A stretch of 64,000 nt of DNA from Candidatus Helarchaeota archaeon (GCA_019058315.1 JAHPZH010000001.1:695536-759535), one strand, 5' to 3'. Counted from the stretch's first letter, positions 927 to 41,086 are shown. Translations and numbers: made by a program. Notes: generated from the letters alone by a model not told the origin.

Positions 927-3900
927 TTAATTTTCGAATATTTTTTGAACAAATTTATCTATTTTTGAAAAAACCTCTATATCTCCCATATAATTTTTAA
1001 ATTCTTCTTCAAAAAACTCTTCAACTATTTGAATTAATTCTTTTAATTTATTTTGTAATGTAATTAAATTTTCGTCTGTTATTAAAGCAGCACTTACATA
1101 TCTACCGTGTTCGAGGAGGATTGTTGCCTCTTCTTGTTCAACTATTTTTATTTTTGTCTTATCTAAAGTTAATTCTTGCAATAAAGCGGATATTCCTGTT
1201 AATCCTCCTGCAACTAATTGCGACTCAAGCTCATCTACCTCTTCCACCTCTCTAAACGATTTACTATAAATACATGTTCCATTCGGCATGATAAAATAGA
1301 TTTGATGGATTCTTTTTGGCCAATTTAATTCGGATTCTGTTGCTAAATCTGTTCTTTGCATCTCGTCAATATCAATTGAGGAACTTATTTCGCTGGGACT
1401 AGCAGGAGCTGAAATTCCAATACTGCTGGCTGAAATTGCAGGTTTCTCAATAAGATTTAGTGCAGATGTAAGTATTGCTCTTTCATCTTTAATCATTTTT
1501 AAATGTTTTAAAATCTCATCTCTTTTTTGTTTGTATCCTGCGTCAGTAAAAATTTTTAATGCGTTATTGAGATAAGTTATGGCAATATTCAAATATTGAT
1601 TCTTTTTAGAAAAGTCCATTACATTATCAGATTGAATCAGATGCCATAATCCATCAAAATAAGTCGATGTTGCTAAAGCCCATTGGGCATCTTGTTTAAA
1701 TCCACCCATTTGATATTGTTTTGATGATTCTCGTAAGTACATTTTTATTCTTTTATAATAATCAGTTTTTTCTATTAAATCGATGGATTGGTCAAAACGA
1801 CTTCCATATTCAAGAGCTGAGCAAAAAAGTGAATTTCCTAATGATAATTTTTTCATTCTACTTTCTGGAAAATGTGTGCTTGCATCTTTAAACAAATCAG
1901 AAGCTACACCATAAAGTGATGGTTTTTGATCTACTTCCGCTCGCTCCATATTTTCCCAAGCTTGACATAGATAAAAAATTGCTTTTAATTCTTCTCCTTC
2001 AGTTTTAATTGTTTTAGAGATATTTTCAAAAAGAGTACCTGCTTTATTATAAAGTTCGGCAGCAAGGAGATGATTTCCACTTTTACTTTCTAATCTTGCT
2101 TGCTCAATCTGTTGACGAGCAATACAATAGGTCACTCTATATTCCGCAACTTGAATTAATTTTGAAATTCTATCTATTTCCTCTAAAATTTTCTTTTTTC
2201 CAAGAGTTGTATTGAGGACTTCAATTGCTTCTTGAAAATTAACCTTGGCAACTAAATAGGTTGCGGCTGCTTCCTGATGTTTATTTATTTTGCTTAATTT
2301 TTCTGCTTTTTCTAAAGTTGACCATGCAAAATAGAAAGGAGCTTCAAATCTATACTCACGAATATCCTTTAATATGTAACTTGCTTGTTCGTAATTTAAT
2401 TGTGCATTTTGATGGTCTTCATTTGCATGATAAGATTTAGCAAATTCAATAATTTTCCAAGCGTTGACATAATTTTTTAATTTTTCAATTCTTTTACCTA
2501 ATTTCGTAAAAGTAAGCGTCATGATTGCGTTATCAAATGAATTAATCGCATTCTTATAATTATCTGCCGCAGAGAGGTAGTTTCCTAAACGATCATCAAT
2601 TTGTGCTGCCTTTACATAAGCCGAACCTACTAAATTAAAATAACCCTTGTTTTTACAATACTCTATCGTATCCATATGCGTCGAATAAGATTGATTAATT
2701 AATTTATCATCATCTGTTAGTCTTCCCAACTCGTAGTAAATATCTCCTAATATGAATAGATGTTCGATATATAAAAAAGCAGCTTCTTGTTTTTTGCTTT
2801 GTGTTAAAAGTTCAATTGCTTTTTCATAATATTTAACAATATCTGATTTTATTGAGGAATTTATTGCCAGATAAATTGCGGCTCTGGAAGTAGACATTAG
2901 AAAAATTGAATAATAATACGTATTTTGAATTCTCTCAATTTTATATTTAAATATATTATCAAAAATCTTAGATGCCATCTGTAAATATTTAGAACTCTCT
3001 TGTATATCTTTAGACAAATCCCCAATTATTGCATAATTCGTACTCATAGCTATATCTCTTGTCAAATTATATATTTTATAACTGGGATTCATGACTATTG
3101 ATGAAAGTTCAATTGATATTCGATTAATTAAATCTGCAGATTTTTTAGAAAAATCAATACGTTGCATGTCCGGAATTGTTGGGCTAATTGCAATCATACC
3201 AACTACAGCTGCTGATACAAAAACAACATTTGCCACCATTATCTTTGGAAAGTATAAAGAAATAGAATCTATACATCTATCTAAATCATCCATGACACGT
3301 TTAAAATCAGCACTAAAATAACCTAAATATATTGACATTACTGCATTGGAGAAACGAACAAAATAGAATAAAGTTAAAAATTGATTAGCATTAGTTTTGT
3401 GCAATAATAGTTCCGCTTTTTTTATAGAATTTTGAGATGATTTTAAGACTTTTTTTAAAAGAAATTGATTATCTACATATAATAGAGAAAAAAACATATA
3501 TAATACAGAATATATCGAGTATGCGTTAAATAAACATAGCGTTTTATCTGAATTTTCAAATTTTTCGATAAATTCTTTAACTATTTCCTGATTATCTGTG
3601 AGATATTGCTTCTTTATTAAATTATCGGCAGGTAAATATGCAAATGTGAGGTGACAAAATTCCACGATACTGAGCAAATAATATTGTAGGTAAATTTCAG
3701 GAAAATCTTGTAGGTTTTTTAATTCTTCCCATATTTTTTTTGTAAGATTATCATGCTCCAGAGCCAATTCCTTAAAATCCGTATTTTCGTCAAGTCGGAT
3801 TATTTTCTCACTAATAATTAAATTCAATGCGTTACTTTCAAAAATGACCATTTTTAAAGAGTCTATTAATTTTCCATTTTTTATATTAAGTAATTTAGCC

Positions 3901-4310
3901 TCCTTAAAATGGTTTTTCGCTGAAAATAATAAAAATTCTTCATTTCCTTTTTCAAATTCAATAATATATTTTAGAAAGTTAATGAATCCCATAGTAGCAT
4001 TTATTTTTTCGACGTTGTTTAACTCTTTAAATATTATAAGAGCTTTTTGAAAACTTGAGATTGATAATTGATAACTCTTTAACACATCTTCTTCGATTTT
4101 TTCGAAATTTGCAGCCATCTGATAAATTTCGCCCAATCTATAATTTGCGTCACCTGATAATTCTTTATATTTTTGCTCAGAACTGATTTTTCTCGCTTCT
4201 TCTAAATGATTTATTGCATCTTTCCAGTTATATTTACGTTCGTCTTCTGTTGCTTTGGTAAATAATTCTTTTACTTGCTGTAAAATTTCATCTCGTGACA
4301 ATTCTGACAT
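927..4310 (-). CDS. Large TPR/helical-repeat protein with C-terminal longin-like domain (Asgard-type)
   Basis: About 950 aa of TPR-like helices (GDANYRLGEIYQ, LGDIYYELGRL, AADNYKNA). The last ~125 aa read IHQIYFIMPNGTCIYSKSF..LVAGGLTGISALLQEL..ILLEHGRYVSAALIT..FFEEEFKNYMGD, a longin-like pattern. Confidence 0.7.
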   Translation of the reverse strand: MSELSRDEILQQVKELFTKATEDERKYNWKDAINHLEEARKISSEQKYKELSGDANYRLGEIYQMAANFEKIEEDVLKSYQLSISSFQKALIIFKELNNVEKINATMGFINFLKYIIEFEKGNEEFLLFSAKNHFKEAKLLNIKNGKLIDSLKMVIFESNALNLIISEKIIRLDENTDFKELALEHDNLTKKIWEELKNLQDFPEIYLQYYLLSIVEFCHLTFAYLPADNLIKKQYLTDNQEIVKEFIEKFENSDKTLCLFNAYSIYSVLYMFFSLLYVDNQFLLKKVLKSSQNSIKKAELLLHKTNANQFLTLFYFVRFSNAVMSIYLGYFSADFKRVMDDLDRCIDSISLYFPKIMVANVVFVSAAVVGMIAISPTIPDMQRIDFSKKSADLINRISIELSSIVMNPSYKIYNLTRDIAMSTNYAIIGDLSKDIQESSKYLQMASKIFDNIFKYKIERIQNTYYYSIFLMSTSRAAIYLAINSSIKSDIVKYYEKAIELLTQSKKQEAAFLYIEHLFILGDIYYELGRLTDDDKLINQSYSTHMDTIEYCKNKGYFNLVGSAYVKAAQIDDRLGNYLSAADNYKNAINSFDNAIMTLTFTKLGKRIEKLKNYVNAWKIIEFAKSYHANEDHQNAQLNYEQASYILKDIREYRFEAPFYFAWSTLEKAEKLSKINKHQEAAATYLVAKVNFQEAIEVLNTTLGKKKILEEIDRISKLIQVAEYRVTYCIARQQIEQARLESKSGNHLLAAELYNKAGTLFENISKTIKTEGEELKAIFYLCQAWENMERAEVDQKPSLYGVASDLFKDASTHFPESRMKKLSLGNSLFCSALEYGSRFDQSIDLIEKTDYYKRIKMYLRESSKQYQMGGFKQDAQWALATSTYFDGLWHLIQSDNVMDFSKKNQYLNIAITYLNNALKIFTDAGYKQKRDEILKHLKMIKDERAILTSALNLIEKPAISASSIGISAPASPSEISSSIDIDEMQRTDLATESELNWPKRIHQIYFIMPNGTCIYSKSFREVEEVDELESQLVAGGLTGISALLQELTLDKTKIKIVEQEEATILLEHGRYVSAALITDENLITLQNKLKELIQIVEEFFEEEFKNYMGDIEVFSKIDKFVQKIFEN

Positions 4311-35000: not shown

Positions 35001-35123
35001 ATAAACTCCTTCAAAAGTTTTTTGATAATTTTTTTATTTATGTATTTAATAATTATTATTCTAATCCTATTAATAAAGAAAAAATACTATTTTCAATTTC
35101 TTATTTATGTCGAGAGAATTTCA

Positions 35124-38100
35124 ATGGTCAGTTTAATAGAATGGATACCAGATTTTTCTTATTTTGCATATAAAGTGGCAAATCCTATTAATTTAGCAAA
35201 AAGTTTAAAGTATCTAGAAGAAAAAATCAAAAAAGGTGATATATTTCAATCTCTTGATGTTTTATTTTGGACTATTGTTTTAATTGACCGCCTAGATAAA
35301 AAAGAATTAATAGATAACAAATTAATAAAAAAATACATTTCTGAATTAAAGCATGAAGATGGTGGTTTTAAATTCTCGTCTGATTTAGAAAGTCCAGACA
35401 CATTATCTACTTCTTATTCCATAGCCATTTTGAAAATATTAGGAATAAACGAGCTTATCGATGATAAGGATATAAATTTTATTATAAATTCTCAAAATGA
35501 GGGAGGATTCATTCATTGTAATTCCAAAAGTTGTCATATTAATTGTAAAGGAAGAGCCTCGGTCGAATTTAGCTTGTATGCCCTTACTGCATTAATTCTA
35601 TTAAGTAAACTTGAAAAAATAAATAAAAAACGATTAATAGATTACTTAAAAAGAGAGACAAAGGATAACATTGAGTTAATTTATCAAATTCTCGGTTTAA
35701 AATTAATTAATGCACTTAATATTGATGATTTTGAGAGAAAATTTCCAATTTTAACATCTTGGCAATTACCGAATAGCGGATTTGGAATTAATACTAAATT
35801 TCCATCTGCAGAAGATACATATTGGGTTGGTATCTGTCTAGGCTTATTAAAAAAACTGGATTTAATAGAATTTAATGGAGTATTAGATTTTATAAGGGGT
35901 ATGCAACAAGATAATGGAGGTTTTACAGGTCAATATACTAGTATAAGTTCGCAAAAACCAACTTTAATTAATACAGTACAATGTATTGTAAGCTTATTTT
36001 ATATTTGGAATAATATAATTGAGATAATTGAAAATGAAATTCTTCTGTGTGCCCGTGATTTTTCCGATATTTATTTAATTCCAATCACTGAAAAATTCTC
36101 GGTATCTATGGATCTAGTGGTAGAAATTGCCAATTGGCTTATTTCAAATAAATGGATTGAAGGAGAAATAATAAATAGAGAAGTGATGTTTGATAGTTAT
36201 TTTAATAAACAGAATCAAATCTCTCAAGAAATAATAAACGCAATTATGAAACACGTAAAATCTTTCCAAAAACAAAAAGAACTCGATTTGAAAGAGTTAA
36301 GTAAGAATTTTGATTTTTCCAATCCCCTAGAAAGGGTAAAATTAGTTGTAAATGATTTACTTATCAATAAATTTTTAACAGGGAATGTAAAAGCCTATAA
36401 GAAAAAATATATCCTTGAAAATTTTGCTCTACCTGGTAAATATATCCAGCTTTCAAAACCAATTTCGTATGAGGAGATAATCGGAGAAAAGAAACGATTG
36501 GAAGTAGATAAACAAAAATTAATTACCCTTCGTTCAGAATTAATTAAAACCTCTAGAACTATTTTTGAAGAAATTCAGAAATTTATTGATAAGGAAAAAA
36601 TTACTGAAGCAAATAATAAATTACAGGATGAAATAAAATCCACAAGAGAGAAAATTTCAAAATTAGAAGAATTGATGAAAAACCTCAATTCTGAATATAA
36701 AATAATTGATTTTAAGTTATCTAATTTTAAATTCCAAAAAAACTGGCCATCAATAAAAAATGTAATTATAAAAGAGCTCAGTACAACAAAATTAAAAATA
36801 GAAGAATTAATCAAGAAAAAGGAAAAAGATATTTCGAAACGTTCCCAAGAGAAGAAAGAAGAAGAGGCTATTAACACTTTACGTACAAAATTAAGAGAAA
36901 TTAAAAATAAAATGAATTTGTATCAAGTTGAAATTAAGAATTTTTTTCCAAAAAATTTTACTGATCATGAAAATACACTGAAATTAATTAATTCTATCTC
37001 TGATTATGTTATTGAATCTGATTCTAACCTCAATTCTGAGTTTTCAAATTTATCTTCTGATCTGAAACTTGAGAAATTTAAAAAAGAGCTTGAACAAGTC
37101 AAAACGTCCTGGGAAAAGGAGAAACAAGATAGAAAAGAACTTATCAAATCCTACCATATCAAAATTGAAAAGAGAATTGAATTAGAAAAATTAATTGAAA
37201 AAGTTACTTCAGAACTTGAAGAATTCTCTAAAAATAAAAATGAACAAATCATAAAACTAACTAATGATAATAAATTAGATGAAGGCTCTAAATTATTAAA
37301 TGAATCCATTAATAAGTTTAAAGAATTGAATTTAAAACAAAATAAAGCTATTAAAGATTTTTTAGAGAAAATAAATAAAGAAATTTCTGATTTTTCTAAA
37401 TATTCTAGCGATCTTGAATCGGATTGGCAAAAAAAATTCAAAATTGAAGAAGAAAGATGGGATAAAATAGTATCCGAATTGAATACAAAACTCCATTCAA
37501 GCTTTGAAATTGAAAAGAAAGATGAATTGGATGAAAAAATGAAGCACTATGCCGAGGATATTAAAACCTCAATAGAAAAAATGAAAAAAACTGTATTAGA
37601 ATTAATTGAAACTGATAAAGTGATTGATGCAGGAAATAATACCAAAGAATTGACTGTAAAAATAGATGAAGAAATTAAAAGATGTAATCAAGAATGTAAG
37701 GATTTTATAAAGGATAAAAGTCGTGATTTTAAAAATTTTCGCGAAACTGTAAATTCTATTATAGAAAATTGGGAATCTGATAGTGAAAAACTAGTCCAAT
37801 CCTTAGAAGAAACAAAAATTGAATTAAAAAAGAAAATAAATGAAAAAGGATCAGAATTAAGAAAAATTCAACTAGAAGAACTAATTAAAAATGAAATTTC
37901 TGAAATTGAAGGTAAGATTGATAACTTTAAACTAAATTTTAATCAAACTATTGATTTTGGAAAAAAATTAGACGATTTTGAAGAGAAATTTGAAACAGAG
38001 TTATCTCAAATTAGGGATTCGTTAAAAATTTCTGATGATAAAATAAAAGATGTTATTAAAACTGCATCAAAGATTTATGAAATATTTGAAGAGCTAACAT

Positions 38101-38816
38101 CAAAAGAAATTAAATATTGGGATGATTCAAAATCTTCAATCGAAAATCAGTTAGAAATGATTTCAGGAAAGATCAATGATGAAATTCTAATAGTGAAAAT
38201 ACAAACAATAGTCAGTGCTTTTAAAGGTAATAAAATTGATTTAAGTTATTTATCCAAGGCATTAAAAACCAAATTTGAATCTCTTAAATTAAAAATAATT
38301 GAATTAATTTCTGAAAAAAGACTTGTTGGTGAACTTGATACCTTTGATATGTTCATTTTAAAGGAAGAGGCTAGTCCTAGTAAATTATTAATAGAACAGG
38401 TAAATGAAATAAAGAAAGATATATTAAGAACGCGTTATTTAATGGTAATACATAATGAAATAGGAGCTTCTGTTTATAATAGACAATTAGGGGATTGGGA
38501 CCTCGATCCAAGTCTGATGAGTGGATTTTTATCAGCAATCCAGAGTTTTAGTTCAGAAATCAAGAAGAAAAAGATTCCCATGAAACGGATGGAATATAAA
38601 GATTTTGAGATTATAATGGAACAAGGGGATTATATATTAGTGGCTTTATTCATAGATGGAAGAGAATCGGACTGGCTTCGAAGCAAATTAAAGTTATATG
38701 TTACGGAATTTGAAAAAGAATATGGAGAACAACTAAAAGAATGGGGCGGTGAACTTGCTACATTCAGAAAATCGGGATTTTTAGTGGATAAAGCATTTGA
38801 ATTATTTAGAGTGTGA
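35124..38816 (+). CDS. Multidomain protein: prenyltransferase-beta-like toroid + winged helices + helical rod + PCI-like WH + longin-like domain
   Basis: Four prenyltransferase-repeat motifs (KHEDGGF, QNEGGF, QLPNSGFG, QQDNGGF). WH-like LISNKWIEGEI and LLINKFLTGNV. Long K/E-rich helices. PCI-like IDLSYLSKAL..IIELISEKRLVGELD. Longin-like RYLMVIH..GASVY..LMSGFLSAIQSF. ATG 35124 is preferred. Confidence 0.7.
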   Translation: MVSLIEWIPDFSYFAYKVANPINLAKSLKYLEEKIKKGDIFQSLDVLFWTIVLIDRLDKKELIDNKLIKKYISELKHEDGGFKFSSDLESPDTLSTSYSIAILKILGINELIDDKDINFIINSQNEGGFIHCNSKSCHINCKGRASVEFSLYALTALILLSKLEKINKKRLIDYLKRETKDNIELIYQILGLKLINALNIDDFERKFPILTSWQLPNSGFGINTKFPSAEDTYWVGICLGLLKKLDLIEFNGVLDFIRGMQQDNGGFTGQYTSISSQKPTLINTVQCIVSLFYIWNNIIEIIENEILLCARDFSDIYLIPITEKFSVSMDLVVEIANWLISNKWIEGEIINREVMFDSYFNKQNQISQEIINAIMKHVKSFQKQKELDLKELSKNFDFSNPLERVKLVVNDLLINKFLTGNVKAYKKKYILENFALPGKYIQLSKPISYEEIIGEKKRLEVDKQKLITLRSELIKTSRTIFEEIQKFIDKEKITEANNKLQDEIKSTREKISKLEELMKNLNSEYKIIDFKLSNFKFQKNWPSIKNVIIKELSTTKLKIEELIKKKEKDISKRSQEKKEEEAINTLRTKLREIKNKMNLYQVEIKNFFPKNFTDHENTLKLINSISDYVIESDSNLNSEFSNLSSDLKLEKFKKELEQVKTSWEKEKQDRKELIKSYHIKIEKRIELEKLIEKVTSELEEFSKNKNEQIIKLTNDNKLDEGSKLLNESINKFKELNLKQNKAIKDFLEKINKEISDFSKYSSDLESDWQKKFKIEEERWDKIVSELNTKLHSSFEIEKKDELDEKMKHYAEDIKTSIEKMKKTVLELIETDKVIDAGNNTKELTVKIDEEIKRCNQECKDFIKDKSRDFKNFRETVNSIIENWESDSEKLVQSLEETKIELKKKINEKGSELRKIQLEELIKNEISEIEGKIDNFKLNFNQTIDFGKKLDDFEEKFETELSQIRDSLKISDDKIKDVIKTASKIYEIFEELTSKEIKYWDDSKSSIENQLEMISGKINDEILIVKIQTIVSAFKGNKIDLSYLSKALKTKFESLKLKIIELISEKRLVGELDTFDMFILKEEASPSKLLIEQVNEIKKDILRTRYLMVIHNEIGASVYNRQLGDWDLDPSLMSGFLSAIQSFSSEIKKKKIPMKRMEYKDFEIIMEQGDYILVALFIDGRESDWLRSKLKLYVTEFEKEYGEQLKEWGGELATFRKSGFLVDKAFELFRV

Positions 38817-38959: not shown

Positions 38960-41086
38960 ATGTCATTTAAAAAAAATTTGGAAGATACAAATAAATTATC
39001 CAAAAAACAAATGCATAGTAAAGCAGAAATTAAAGATGCTATGGAGACTTTAAGACAAGAAATAAAAGAAAATGTAAAAACTTTGACTCAGTTTCAAACT
39101 GATTTAAAAAAATATTTTCTTCGAAACTTTAGGGACCATTTATCCACAAAAGATTACATTAATTCTTATTCAGAATTTATTGAAAAAGCTGATTCTACTC
39201 TAAGTTATAATATTTCAAAAATATCTGATTTTATCCAAGAGGAAAAAAATAAAAGATCAATTTTAAAATATAAGACATTTTGGGCGAAAAATCGGAAAAA
39301 AGGTTTGGATATACTTCATATTTACCAAAGTAGACTTAATAAACGAATTGAATTTGAAGAATTTATTAATGAAAGGATGTCTGAATTACAAAACTTTACT
39401 GATGAATTAAATAATCAAATAATTAATATGATTAATGAAGATAATTTGAAAGGAGCGGTTCATTTATTAAATGATTCAATTAAGCAATATGATCAAATTG
39501 TTTTAAAACATAATGTTGAATTTAAGGAGTTTAAAAGTGTAATTAATAGGGAAATGGCTGATGCGATTAAATTCTTTATTGATTTAAAAACATCTTGGAT
39601 TAATAAAAATAATGAAGAAAAGATAAGATGGAGAAATTTTGTTATAGAAACAAGAAAAAAACTATCAACTACAAAAGAATCTGTATGGAAAGACGAATTG
39701 GAAGAAAAAATAGGAACTTATATTGACAATCTAGACAATTCCATTGATGATATGAAAGAAGAAATATCTAGATCAATGGAAACTGAAGATCCTATTAAAC
39801 TTGTAATGGATTTAAAAAACCAATGTGCCACAATTAATCAATCTATAAATAACTATCATAATGATATTAAAGTTTCTATTAGAAGTTCTATTAAGGACTT
39901 TAAAACCTCTCGTGAATCAATAAAAGATCAGATTGAACACTGGCAGAATGAAAAGAAAAGAATTACGAATTATCTAAATGAAATTAAAAATGAATTGAAA
40001 GATGAAATTGATAATATAGGTATAGATGTTAAAACTGAAGAATTACAAAAATTAATTAAAATGCAATTAGATGAATGGAAAAATAAAGTTAAGGAATTTA
40101 TATCAAATTATAATGACTTTGTTGATACTGGAGAATCATTAATTAGTTATGAACCTAAATTCGAAGCAGAAAAAACTCAAATTAAAAAATCTTTCAAATC
40201 ATCAGCATTATTGAAAGCATTTTTAAAAGATACATCCCGTGTTTATTCATCTTTTAATAAAATAGTGGATACTGATATTCAAGCTTATAAAAATTCAAGA
40301 AGTGTAATAGAGCATAACTTTGAATTAATAACTAATAAAATTAAAGAAGAAATTCTCATTCAGAGAATACAAGCGATAGTAAATGTTATAAAAGATAATA
40401 AAGTGGGAATAAGTTATTTAGCAAAAGCATTACGAGTTGATGCAAAAGCATTAAAAAGAAAAATTATTAGCCTTTTAGCAGAATTCAAATTAATAGGGGA
40501 ATTAGATCCCGTTTCTGGAATGTTCATTTTAAAAGAAAAAAAATTGCCTAATAAACTCGAAATCGATGAAGAATTAGAAGAGGAGCAAATTTTAGAAGAA
40601 GAAGAGGAAGAAGAAGAGGAAGTAGAAGAAAAAGTCGAAGAAAAAATAGAAGAAAAAGTAGAAAAAGAAGAAGATCTCATCAAAAAGGACATCTTAAGAA
40701 TTCGATATCTAATGGCAATACATAAATCAGTAGGTGCATCTGTATATAATAGAAAACTGGGGGATTGGAAACTTGATCCTGATTTAATAGGTGGCTTTTT
40801 AACTGCTATCCAAAGTTTGAGTACGGAAATTAAGCAAAAAGAAATTCCTATAAAACGAATGGAGTATAAAGAATTTGAAATACTAATTGAACCTGGTGAA
40901 TATGTTTTTGTCGCTTTATTTATTGATGGAAAGGAAACCGATTGGATTCGTGAAAAGCTTAAATTATATGTACAGGAATTTGAAAGTACATTTGAAGAAA
41001 AATTGAAAAATTGGTTGGGTGAATTGAGTGCTTTTGAAAAATCAGGACTTTTAGTTGATAAAATATTTGAATTATACCGTGTATGA
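38960..41086 (+). CDS. Paralogue lacking the N-terminal toroid: helical rod + PCI-like WH + acidic linker + longin-like domain
   Basis: Aligns with the C-terminal ~60% of the upstream gene (KNFTDH vs RNFRDH; ISYLAKAL..LIGELDP). The longin domain is ~70% identical by hand count. Confidence 0.7.
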   Translation: MSFKKNLEDTNKLSKKQMHSKAEIKDAMETLRQEIKENVKTLTQFQTDLKKYFLRNFRDHLSTKDYINSYSEFIEKADSTLSYNISKISDFIQEEKNKRSILKYKTFWAKNRKKGLDILHIYQSRLNKRIEFEEFINERMSELQNFTDELNNQIINMINEDNLKGAVHLLNDSIKQYDQIVLKHNVEFKEFKSVINREMADAIKFFIDLKTSWINKNNEEKIRWRNFVIETRKKLSTTKESVWKDELEEKIGTYIDNLDNSIDDMKEEISRSMETEDPIKLVMDLKNQCATINQSINNYHNDIKVSIRSSIKDFKTSRESIKDQIEHWQNEKKRITNYLNEIKNELKDEIDNIGIDVKTEELQKLIKMQLDEWKNKVKEFISNYNDFVDTGESLISYEPKFEAEKTQIKKSFKSSALLKAFLKDTSRVYSSFNKIVDTDIQAYKNSRSVIEHNFELITNKIKEEILIQRIQAIVNVIKDNKVGISYLAKALRVDAKALKRKIISLLAEFKLIGELDPVSGMFILKEKKLPNKLEIDEELEEEQILEEEEEEEEEVEEKVEEKIEEKVEKEEDLIKKDILRIRYLMAIHKSVGASVYNRKLGDWKLDPDLIGGFLTAIQSLSTEIKQKEIPIKRMEYKEFEILIEPGEYVFVALFIDGKETDWIREKLKLYVQEFESTFEEKLKNWLGELSAFEKSGLLVDKIFELYRV
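40564..40676 (+). repeat. Poly-Glu low-complexity tract with 12-nt tandem units (VEEK)n
   Basis: GTAGAAGAAAAA GTCGAAGAAAAA ATAGAAGAAAAA GTAGAAAAAGAA at 40622-40669, preceded by a GAA/GAG run. Confidence 0.8.

Follow-up and report, generated by a model that had tools for sequence, protein, structure and literature searches.

The question raised by this locus is what a single archaeal protein may do with a prenyltransferase-like ring at one end, a longin-like domain at the other and a long helical rod between them. The gene, P0002, lies in a stretch of 64,000 nucleotides from Candidatus Helarchaeota archaeon (hereafter the window), and the original prediction had read its product as a candidate ancestral GTPase-lipid or tether platform.

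Domain architecture and distribution

P0002 starts at the ATG at 35124, which gives the same first residue as in its orthologs, and W7, P9, Y13, K17 and P21 near the N-terminus are invariant among these; a TTG further upstream, at 35022, was rejected as the start, as it contributes AT-rich junk only. The gene and its parts are:

35124..38816, + strand: whole gene P0002, 1230 aa (toroid, winged-helix region, repeat rod, PCI-type winged helix, longin)
35124..36023, + strand: prenyltransferase-beta-like alpha/alpha toroid, aa 1-300 (PF00432, Foldseek, AF2)
35514..35546, + strand: H131-C132-x4-C137-x3-C141 insert, candidate structural zinc knuckle (family alignment)
35796..35825, + strand: degenerate catalytic site, aa 225-234, KFPSAEDTYW (HMMER alignment to RabGGTase beta K235-L-P-D238-V-C240-Y241)
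36060..36458, + strand: winged-helix region, aa 313-445, a small b-a-a-b unit and then a PCI-like winged helix (AF2)
36471..38153, + strand: helical rod, aa 450-1010, four in-register repeats
36699-37058, + strand: rod repeat R1, aa 526-645
37059-37409, + strand: rod repeat R2, aa 646-762
37410-37721, + strand: rod repeat R3, aa 763-866
37722-38069, + strand: rod repeat R4, aa 867-982
38157..38378, + strand: PCI-type winged helix, aa 1012-1085 (PF01399, AF2, Atlas)
38409..38813, + strand: longin-type domain, aa 1096-1230 (bb-a-bbb-a-a order, Fuz_longin_1, Sec22b match)

All five domain calls of the original prediction (toroid, winged helices, rod, PCI-like winged helix and longin) stand, and none of the three findings that it had named as counting against it was made: the N-terminus is a toroid of the prenyltransferase type, a longin-type C-terminus is supported, and no published account of a P0002-type protein was found in the literature, nor any description of one protein that unites a longin with a repeat rod and a prenyltransferase toroid. 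Ten full-length orthologs align with P0002 over its entire length, with identities of 42-84%. The family was detected in 8 of 41 relatives and, across the phylum, in 3 of 201 genomes sampled, its full-length conservation extending to a few Loki-type Asgard genera. This narrow distribution lends no support to an ‘ancestral’ platform, and neither does the presence in the same genome of a stand-alone toroid, L019, which is far nearer to RabGGTase beta (E 4e-21) than P0002 is (E 3e-7). The genes flanking P0002 belong to purine synthesis, lie on the opposite strand and are uninformative on function. No hydrophobic segments were found in P0002, from which a cytoplasmic location is predicted.

Downstream of the toroid two winged-helix-like units had been noted, which is roughly right: in the AF2 model a b-a-a-b unit at aa 313-351 is followed by a clearer winged helix at about aa 384-445 (pLDDT 75-90). 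The winged helix after the toroid gives a weak match to PF01399 (E 0.0023) and one to E3_UFM1_ligase (E 0.0086), and the equivalent winged helix of the paralog L017 matches PCI at E 0.00085.

As judged from the alignments, the rod consists of four repeats and is no single coiled coil. The repeats measure 104-120 aa each (typically about 115 aa), and their sub-alignments are matched in register by hhalign (R3-R4 96.1%, R2-R3 92.7%, R1-R4 68.1%). Each repeat contains an invariant Trp (W541, W663, W779 and W883), and short conserved loops separate its long helices; W999 lies in the stretch that runs into the PCI-type winged helix. The ortholog P0008 has one additional tandem repeat.

The PCI-like winged helix behind the rod is confirmed by PF01399, found at E <= 0.1 in 9 of the 10 family members (best E 6.9e-8), and by structure. 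Specifically, the one ortholog checked in detail, P0006, scores 28.4 bits against a gathering cut-off of 22, and P0002 itself is below threshold (E 0.12); the domain is modelled by AF2 at pLDDT 81-87, and the model of aa 985-1082 resembles eukaryotic RPN6-like PCI clusters of the Atlas over 96 residues, with an rmsd of 3.2 A. The winged helix and its preceding helices are thus similar to those of PCI scaffold subunits (proteasome lid, CSN, eIF3) in matching PF01399 and RPN6-like models. Unlike those subunits, however, P0002 has no TPR-like solenoid before its winged helix, where Pfam detected no solenoid family and the sequence is that of the repeat rod, and a multi-PCI horseshoe assembly finds no support.

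The toroid and its former active site

An N-terminal toroid with four GGF/GFG repeats is what PF00432 (E 1.3e-14, 54.7 bits against a cut-off of 26.5), Foldseek and the motif positions (aa 80-82, 127-129, 218-221 and 265-267) all indicate. The AF2 model of aa 1-470 has a pLDDT of 82.5, with values of about 90 across the toroid, and its top Foldseek match is RabGGTase/GGTase-III beta (E 5e-10, TM 0.72 by target, 20% identity); among its structural neighbours in the Atlas are PF00432 toroids from bacteria, archaea and eukaryotes, all of similar TM. The alpha/alpha fold and the GGF-type repeat loops are those of RabGGTase beta (RABGGTB), but one GGF repeat is deleted in P0002, a His-Cys3 insert is added, and the toroid is fused to a scaffold of about 900 aa; the stand-alone toroid L019 is closer to RABGGTB.

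The original prediction had cautioned that the zinc ligands of protein prenyltransferases are not evident, and rightly so. In the HMMER alignment, D238 and C240 of RabGGTase beta are replaced by S228 and E230 in P0002, the corresponding family columns holding S/T and E/K/D and never Cys, while the position of His290, aligned by eye from P279, is occupied by L/F/I in the family. The residues H190, R232, K235 and Y241, which we take to be the isoprenoid-diphosphate ligands of RabGGTase beta, align with N183, I222, K225 and D231, so that only the Lys is kept, the other three positions being variable across the family. The catalytic residues are, on these alignments, lost.

The insert consists of H131, C132, C137 and C141, which are invariant in all ten family members. 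It faces a 7-residue gap of RabGGTase beta in the alignment and is absent there, and an H-C-x4-C-x(1-3)-C motif is also found in both long paralogs of the same genome. Presumably, it comes after a GGF loop on the barrel rim, at a place where the cavity of RabGGTase beta does not reach. A compact H-C-x4-C-x3-C pattern is typical of structural zinc knuckles, and the insert is a candidate for binding metal in this way. Close to the former active site, Q270, Y271, T272, S275 and P279 are conserved, and these residues and the His-Cys3 insert could also mark a newly acquired site for catalysis or metal binding.

Matches in the genome to the alpha-subunit family PF01239 (PPTA) are mostly below the cut-off, the one at the cut-off being a 1045-aa ORF, and the same search also gives matches in four control genomes. 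Two PPTA-matching ORFs were scanned and score far higher as TPR_1/TPR_2, as ordinary TPR proteins do, and no convincing prenyltransferase alpha subunit was identified. Screened for a C-terminal CAAX, CC or CXC, all 108 Ras-like ORFs of this genome proved negative (in two, a Cys occurs, but only at position -5), in line with PMC10933270 on strain MK-D1. Furthermore, according to two of the three papers PMC10936438, PMC10933270 and PMC4917890, Asgard or Loki genomes yielded no RabGGTase homologs or prenyltransferases. The nearest Ras-like ORF lies 144 kb from P0002. A role in GTPase lipidation is therefore not supported here, and P0002 does not look like a prenylating enzyme, given the replaced zinc ligands, the three of four diphosphate ligands replaced and the missing prenylation motifs.

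The longin-type domain, its predicted pairing and the membrane

A longin-type assignment of the C-terminus, as had been proposed, is supported by the order of its secondary structure elements, by structural matches and by a transitive link. The order bb-a-bbb-a-a is that of longins, as seen in an AF2 monomer of low pLDDT (about 45-65; 84-86 in the dimer prediction described below). The top single-domain structural match in Foldseek is the Sec22b longin (TM 0.65 by target, rmsd 4.2), with the VAMP7 longin and AP sigma among the further matches and roadblocks next, at 0.45-0.56. Sequence searches found no PDB match for the domain, and Fuz_longin_1 remains subthreshold (E 0.004, 17.7 bits against a cut-off of 26.1). 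Membership follows by transitive homology, because an HMM of the P0002 domain matches L027 (E 6e-15), which passes Fuz_longin_1 (E 3e-10, 40.8 against 26.1 bits). The same HMM matched 137 ORFs in this genome, 75 of which contain a strongly hydrophobic segment.

Directly downstream of P0002 lies a shorter relative:

38960..41086, + strand: P0017, 708 aa, toroid-less paralog of P0002 aa 570-1230 (BLASTP)
40556-40672, + strand: poly-Glu linker of P0017
40682-41083, + strand: longin of P0017

P0017 carries rod repeats, a PCI winged helix, the poly-Glu linker and a longin, and is 40% identical to P0002 over 697 columns (BLASTP, E 4e-154), rising to 68% in the longin domain. It is present only here and on a contig of an 84%-identical relative; a counterpart is absent beside the orthologs of 75%, 55% and 46% identity.

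The two longins are predicted to pair with each other. The prediction reaches an ipSAE of 0.66, the best of three controls giving 0.13, and among solved complexes 58 of 80 attain the same mark, as do 2 of 110 mismatched pairs; since our own alignments were used, these counts apply here only roughly. At least 95% of the contacts agree between dimer runs, and the P0017 partner has a pLDDT of at least 84. The predicted interface is symmetric and is built from helix a1 and antiparallel edge strands (helix 33-55 and strand 59-69 in domain numbering; in P0002, helix a1 and strand b3, aa 1125-1161), and it holds many of the residues most conserved in the superfamily (D36, L39, G42, F43, A46, F50 and Y66, in domain numbering). 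Such a helix and edge-strand interface is, we assume, the known roadblock/longin dimer mode, as in MglB and LAMTOR, and the dimer score may therefore partly reflect likeness to solved dimers. Because the two longins are 68% identical, the prediction fits a homodimer and a heterodimer alike.

Several paralogs connect the family with membranes. Closest to the P0002 longin, at 54-56% identity, are the longins of three proteins in which the domain comes after 3 TM helices; these longins form one well-supported clade (100/99) with those of the toroid proteins. The 3-TM longins, like P0017, are confined to this lineage and so offer no explanation for what the orthologs of other genera do. A sister paralog, L018 (1473 aa), shares its toroid-bearing N-terminal 460 residues or so with P0002 (32% identity) and has a long C-terminal extension, in which its ortholog P0013 shows a weak PCI match. 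Proteins of this membrane-anchored Lokiarchaeia type (about 1470 aa; L018 and P0013-P0016), for which no publication was found, resemble P0002 in having the toroid, the H-C-x4-C-x(1-3)-C insert, the winged-helix region and the PCI-type winged helix, but L018 exceeds it by about 240 aa and has a 2-TM hairpin at its C-terminus, conserved in P0013-P0016, where P0002 has a longin. From these paralogs, a place close to the membrane may be inferred for P0002. A tether platform remains plausible, with indirect support from the membrane-hairpin paralog and the membrane-anchored longin paralogs, whereas the GTPase-lipid half of that idea is unsupported.

In Asgard archaea, longins are known to occur together with modules of the HTH/PCI, TPR and Ig-like types, and in some cases with GTPases, in one protein (Makarova et al. 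2024, PMC10936438; Tran et al. 2024, PMC10933270; Dey et al. 2016, PMC4917890), and the relatives of the P0002 longin have the same co-occurring domains, often HTH_24, MarR, ArsR or HVO_0163-type wHTH domains.

A possible scaffold and its alternatives

The reading that we favour, with a probability of roughly 45%, is that P0002 is a non-catalytic, dimeric scaffold of the cytoplasm close to the membrane. Pairing of the longins would hold two chains together at the C-terminal end, and the partner could be a second copy of P0002, the toroid-less P0017 or one of the three 3-TM-plus-longin proteins. Starting from this node, four helical repeats of about 115 aa would form a jointed rod leading to the toroid at the far end, with the PCI-type winged helices flanking the rod as putative docking sites. 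The toroid, having lost its zinc and diphosphate sites and gained a conserved His-Cys3 knuckle, would probably bind a ligand or a protein and transfer no prenyl group. Control of P0002 by small GTPases, if there is any, is likewise inferred. An analogy can be drawn with golgins, in which a long helical rod has a capture module at one end and a TM anchor or a docking domain at the other: the TM-hairpin paralog might correspond to TM-anchored golgins and the longin-ended P0002 to GTPase-recruited ones. However, P0002 has no sequence or fold homology to golgins, its rod is made of repeats whereas the golgin coiled coil is continuous, and we know of no vesicles or internal membranes in these archaea.

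Among the other explanations, a platform for small GTPases, in which the longin dimer would recruit a Ras/Rab/Arf-like GTPase or offer it a GEF/GAP-like surface, and an isoprenoid lipid would be bound by the toroid, thereby coupling the GTPase to lipid or membrane, appears unlikely. A small-GTPase role has been proposed for Asgard longin and roadblock proteins (PMC10933270, PMC10936438), and a tie does exist in this genome at the level of the superfamily: four of the 137 longin-like ORFs are fused to a Ras-like domain (e.g. L028, E 3e-46), and 20 of the 133 non-fused ones have a Ras-like ORF no more than 500 bp away, where random placement gives 7.1 +/- 2.6 (maximum 16 in 200 trials). But this linkage is concentrated in longin subfamilies distant from that of P0002 (17 of 67 at HMM-score ranks 71-137 versus 1 of 25 at ranks 1-25), and the distance of P0002 from any Ras-like ORF, the lack of prenylation motifs in all 108 of these and the loss of most diphosphate-binding residues of the toroid speak against it too. 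We give somewhat less credence to a purely structural linker of the Asgard cytoskeleton or envelope, similar to spectrin, in which the longin would only dimerise and the toroid would be a protein-binding head, with neither GTPase nor lipid involved. Spectrin repeats are three-helix bundles of about 106 aa, which the P0002 repeats (about 105-120 aa) resemble in size and pattern, including the Trp conserved in each and the short conserved loops between long helices, and the repeat number differs among orthologs; yet Pfam Spectrin (PF00435) has no match in P0002 at E <= 1, nor did the protein show any module for binding actin or tubulin.

It is improbable that P0002 has kept enzymatic activity by way of a metal site in a new place, with the His-Cys3 insert or the QYT..S..P residues taking over from the D-C-H zinc site for prenyl-transfer or terpenoid chemistry on substrates delivered by the rod and winged helices. 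The invariance of the insert, its occurrence in both long paralogs and the invariant residues around the former His290 position could be understood in this way, and active sites in the terpenoid-cyclase/prenyltransferase superfamily are diverse (10.1101/2024.10.28.620730). On the other hand, three of the four diphosphate ligands are lost, and a 900-aa scaffold tail would be unusual in a metabolic enzyme. The presumed location of the insert at the rim and its likeness to a structural zinc knuckle, as discussed above, also count against this explanation. Finally, a DNA or chromatin regulator, with winged helices binding nucleic acid and the C-terminal alpha/beta domain acting as a ligand sensor, as in IclR-type regulators with a winged helix and a GAF-like domain, is highly improbable. 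IclR-family regulators do occupy the top Foldseek rows for the winged-helix-plus-longin model (E 7.5e-4), and the wHTH domains frequent among the longin-like relatives could point the same way, but the IclR matches have a TM of about 0.2 and an rmsd of 14-17 A, the likeness being one of two-domain composition only. Moreover, the winged helices of P0002 match the PCI, protein-protein type, and 1230 aa with a rod and a toroid are atypical of transcription factors.

The scaffold remains the favoured reading: P0002 looks like a scaffold carrying a dead ring of the RabGGTase-beta type, and not like an enzyme that attaches lipids to GTPases.

Gene, distribution and domain architecture

The open frame on the forward strand of the window spans 35022-38816. 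Its start was assigned to the ATG at 35124 because all ten family members share that start position, whereas the upstream TTG at 35022 would add 34 residues of AT-rich filler that are missing from the orthologs and was rejected. Near this N-terminus, W7, P9, Y13, K17 and P21 are invariant in the alignment of the ten members, and no hydrophobic segment was found in the 1230 residues of the product (P0002). The original prediction had placed a toroid, winged-helix (WH) units, a rod, a PCI-like WH and a longin domain in this one polypeptide, and that architecture is borne out by the Pfam toroid family PF00432, Foldseek, the rod repeats, the Pfam PCI family PF01399 and longin homology.

Full-length orthologs are 42-84% identical to P0002 and belong to Loki-type Asgard archaea, their MAGs being labelled Helarchaeota, Hodarchaeota or Promethearchaeota. 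The genome itself (G000; 5.79 Mb, 12 contigs, 94% complete) was compared with its relatives using residues 1-470 as query, which gave matches in 8 of 41 relatives (largely members of the order to which G000 belongs, together with 2 of 31 from a neighbouring family) and in 3 of 201 genomes sampled evenly from the phylum; the remaining genomes count as 'not found with this query', which weaker paralogs can escape. The gene is flanked on the opposite strand by purE, purB, purD, purF, purL, a PfkB kinase and NAPRTase, an arrangement kept at two orthologous loci, while a third ortholog lies in an unrelated context. The neighbourhood was rejected as a functional lead. Near ortholog P0009, contig L038 of another MAG carries a two-domain gelsolin gene (L038:3756-4754, reverse strand) together with clustered JAB, UQ_con (E2) and ThiF (E1) genes; these are Asgard 'eukaryotic signature' genes and are not kept beside other orthologs.

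Residues 1-300 match PF00432 above the curated cut-off (E 1.3e-14), and the sole matches of the toroid in a PDB sequence search are RabGGTase/GGTase-III beta subunits. The same subunits are the best Foldseek match (E 5e-10, TM 0.72 by target, 20% identity) of the AF2 model of residues 1-470 (mean pLDDT 82.5), followed by FTase and GGTase-I beta and then by complement TED and squalene-hopene cyclase. However, bacterial, Bathyarchaeota and plant toroids among ESM Atlas clusters lie about as close to the model (TM 0.72-0.77 by target), so that the predicted toroid fold is firm but no closer tie to the eukaryotic enzymes is demonstrated.

Beyond the last toroid helix, the AF2 model has a small beta-alpha-alpha-beta unit (313-351) and then a winged helix (approximately 384-445) with a weak PCI match (E 0.0023). 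The rod (approximately 450-1010) is not a featureless coiled coil but four repeats of 104-120 residues, because, when the family alignment was cut at invariant tryptophans and the pieces were compared profile against profile, they matched in register and near full length (R3-R4 96.1%, R2-R3 92.7%, R1-R4 68.1%). In each repeat a Trp is conserved, as are short loops, and the ortholog P0008 has one additional tandem copy. In length and sequence pattern the repeats are reminiscent of spectrin repeats, but the rod gives no match to Pfam Spectrin. Further along, PF01399 is matched by nine of the ten family members at E <= 0.1 (best E 6.9e-8). At the aligned position the copy in ortholog P0006 scores 28.4 bits against a cut-off of 22, and that of P0002 is subthreshold (E 0.12). 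This PCI-type WH is modelled at pLDDT 81-87 (AF2, residues 985-1230) and resembles eukaryotic RPN6-like PCI clusters of the Atlas (96 residues, rmsd 3.2 A).

Catalytic residues and the search for a prenylation system

It had been cautioned at the outset that the Zn ligands of protein prenyltransferases are not evident in the toroid, and the alignments agree. Specifically, RabGGTase beta K-L-P-D238-V-C240-Y241 pairs with K225-F-P227-S228-A-E230-D231 of P0002 (HMMER alignment), R232 with I222, and H190 with N183, a variable position, while H290 is replaced by L/F/I after the invariant P279 (aligned by eye). Across the family, the columns at D238 and C240 are S/T and E/K/D, never Cys, and just the Lys and Pro are conserved there. 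The canonical Zn site (D238/C240/H290) and most of the diphosphate site (R232/Y241/H190) are therefore lost; the toroid also lacks one of the enzyme's GGF repeats. What the family conserves is different: an invariant stretch Q270-Y271-T272..S275..P279, and an invariant H131-C132-x4-C137-x3-C141 insert, where RabGGTase beta has a 7-residue gap. This His-Cys3 insert is common to both long toroid paralogs of the genome (L017, L018) and is a candidate structural zinc knuckle.

The genome also encodes a stand-alone toroid, L019:

G000:C5:402601-403542 (+), prenyltransferase-type toroid, 313 aa, PF00432 E 1e-33

RabGGTase beta matches L019 at E 4e-21, against E 3e-7 for the P0002 toroid. The His-Cys3 insert was not found in L019, nor does L019 have a Cys at the stretch that P0002 aligns to the enzyme's Asp-x-Cys (BLASTP alignment to P0002). 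Elsewhere, one uninterrupted frame of 14,437 aa (G000:C5:999860-1043173, reverse strand) has a PF00432 match at 27 bits.

Matches to the prenyltransferase alpha-subunit repeat (PPTA) in the genome are mostly below cut-off, with one, in a 1045-aa ORF, at cut-off, and the same search gives matches in control genomes without the enzyme. Two of the PPTA-matching ORFs were scanned, and both proved to be plain TPR proteins rather than a convincing alpha subunit. About five TPR proteins of approximately 340 aa, arranged in tandem (G000:C11:484000-492500), match PPTA and score far higher as TPR_1/TPR_2. Using a Ras HMM built from the genome's own short GTPases, 108 Ras-like ORFs were collected, none of which (0/108) ends in CAAX, CC or CXC. 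This lack of prenylation-type ends matches the report on strain MK-D1 by Tran et al. 2024 (PMC10933270) as well as Table 1 in Dey et al. 2016 (PMC4917890).

The C-terminal longin-type domain and small GTPases

The AF2 monomer of the PCI-plus-longin region has a pLDDT of 58.9 (approximately 45-65 in the longin part), and in this low-pLDDT model the C-terminal domain has the longin order of elements, bb-a-bbb-a-a. A single-domain Foldseek search finds the Sec22b longin as best match (TM 0.65 by target), then the VAMP7 longin, AP sigma and roadblock proteins. IclR regulators, the top Foldseek rows for the two-domain model, were rejected, since TM of about 0.2 reflects a similar two-domain composition and not homology. 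The domain matches Pfam Fuz_longin_1 at E 0.004, while 11-row and then 52-row profiles gave chance-level matches alone among PDB chains (Bcl-2 A1, SYCP3). Transitive homology is a stronger argument for longin identity than the weak monomer model. From 1.84 billion proteins a domain profile collects, at E <= 1e-3, 2958 cluster representatives with lengths of approximately 116 to 2774 aa, and sampled relatives carry HTH_HVO_0163_N, HTH_24, MarR/ArsR wHTH, TPR, Ig-like, FG-GAP and PCI domains; TPR, Ig-like and HTH/PCI modules on Asgard longin proteins have been described (Makarova et al. 2024, PMC10936438).

In the genome, the longin-domain HMM matches 137 ORFs, among which L027 passes Fuz_longin_1 (40.8 bits), L028 has the domain at its N-terminus, joined to a Ras domain (E 3e-46), and others carry HTH_47 or NPRL3-type HTH domains. 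Together, 137 longin-like and 108 Ras-like ORFs in 5.8 Mb represent a very large expansion; relatives have genomes of 3-4.7 Mb. A strongly hydrophobic segment occurs in 75 of the 137. Three longin-like ORFs are as follows:

window 927-4310 = G000:C3:696462-699845 (-), 1127-aa ORF with the same longin-like domain at its end, E 8e-20
G000:C5:554591-555673, L025, N-terminal longin-like domain then HTH_47
G000:C1:523201-524286, L026, N-terminal longin-like domain then HTH_47

The first is one of a class with 12 or more paralogs in the genome, approximately 1110-1140 aa long, a sampled member of which (L029) has TPR and a weak MIT match upstream of the longin-like domain. L025 and L026 each adjoin a Ras-like gene, one has a weak match to the NPRL3 C-terminal HTH, and their domain order is reminiscent of the GATOR1 subunits NPRL2/3.

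Four ORFs fuse the longin-like domain to a Ras-like domain; of the remaining 133, 20 have a Ras-like ORF no more than 500 bp away, where random placement gives 7.1 +/- 2.6. This signal sits in distant subfamilies (17/67 GTPase-linked at HMM ranks 71-137 vs 1/25 at ranks 1-25), and 144 kb separate the P0002 gene from the nearest Ras-like ORF; the link to GTPases thus belongs to the superfamily and is not demonstrated for P0002. On these grounds, together with the loss of the Zn and most diphosphate sites and the 108 motif-free Ras-like ORFs, the proposed role in prenylation or GTPase-lipid targeting finds no support.

Possible membrane links, predicted dimer and proposed function

Of the long toroid paralogs, L017 (1236 aa) is 25% identical to P0002 over approximately 800 residues that cover the toroid and the WH region and reach into the rod, and neither a longin domain nor a membrane anchor was found in it. 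L018 (1473 aa), the sister paralog, ends in a 2-TM hairpin that is kept in its orthologs P0013-P0016. With all search filters off, no longin domain was found in L017 or L018. The closest relatives of the P0002 longin (54-56% identity) are three proteins of approximately 280 aa in which the longin comes after three TM helices:

G000:C3:1227508-1229834 and G000:C1:274267-275109, three 3-TM-plus-longin proteins, two in tandem

Just downstream of the tandem pair, a 156-aa frame (C3:1229424-1229834) matches the TM part alone. In a tree, the 3-TM longins and P0017, the product of the neighbouring gene, fall inside a well-supported clade of toroid-protein longins (100/99), and the 281-aa metagenomic protein P0020 groups with the 3-TM longins. 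Taken together, the L018 hairpin, these 3-TM paralogs and the many hydrophobic longin-like ORFs suggest that the longin end may take the place of a membrane anchor through its pairing with membrane-bound longins. Co-occurrence of 3-TM longins with orthologs elsewhere was rejected, as full-length matches are found in G000 alone among 41 relatives, and the reading cannot hold for genera without such partners.

P0017 (708 aa, 38960-41086, forward strand) is a paralog of P0002 residues 570-1230 (40% identity overall, 68% in the longin), without a toroid and with a poly-Glu linker. A gene of this type lies beside the 84%-identical ortholog and is absent beside the 75%, 55% and 46% orthologs, two of these three loci retaining the purine-gene flanks. 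A conserved operon was thus rejected, the paralog being found just here and in the closest relative. Co-folding of the two longins scored 0.66, against 0.13 for the best of three controls, with at least 95% contact agreement between runs and partner pLDDT of at least 84; the mark applied is reached by 58/80 solved complexes and 2/110 mismatched pairs, counts that hold roughly since custom alignments were used. In the prediction the two chains meet symmetrically: helix a1 (domain residues 33-55) packs on its twin and edge strand 59-69 pairs antiparallel with its twin. This interface holds many of the most conserved residues of the longin superfamily. It shows the known roadblock/longin dimer mode, as in MglB and LAMTOR structures, so the high score may in part come from likeness to solved dimers; with longins 68% identical, homo- and heterodimer are not separable by co-folding.

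The best reading, held with no more than moderate confidence, is that P0002 is a scaffold or tether. This part of the original idea survives, while its GTPase-lipid half finds no support. A more elaborate version is improbable: the toroid would hold an isoprenoid chain or lipidated partner non-catalytically, and P0002, close to the membrane, would serve as a tether or as a scaffold for handling lipids. Its longin would recruit it by pairing with membrane-anchored longins, and one of the approximately 100 small GTPases would act as its switch. If true, P0002 would be the functional equivalent in archaea of golgin-type tethers, or else of prenyl-binding escort factors, made from a fold related to that of the eukaryotic Rab-prenylating enzyme.

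P0002 is a new combination of known domain kinds, with a narrow distribution. No description of a toroid-rod-longin architecture was found in the literature on Asgard prenyltransferases, longins and GTPases. According to reviews and structural surveys, Asgard archaea possess numerous Ras/Rab-like GTPases and longin/roadblock proteins and are without prenyltransferases and CAAX-type substrates (PMC4917890 Table 1; PMC10933270). A RabGGTase-beta-like toroid does occur in some Loki-type Asgard archaea, where it shares a polypeptide with a longin domain, but in its fused form it cannot be the missing prenylation enzyme, which tempers claims of 'ancestral prenylation'. The family is an undescribed one of scaffolds with three kinds of C-terminus (longin, membrane hairpin or neither), and the reuse of the P0002-type longin domain on 3-TM membrane proteins provides candidate partners that may link Asgard longin modules to membranes.
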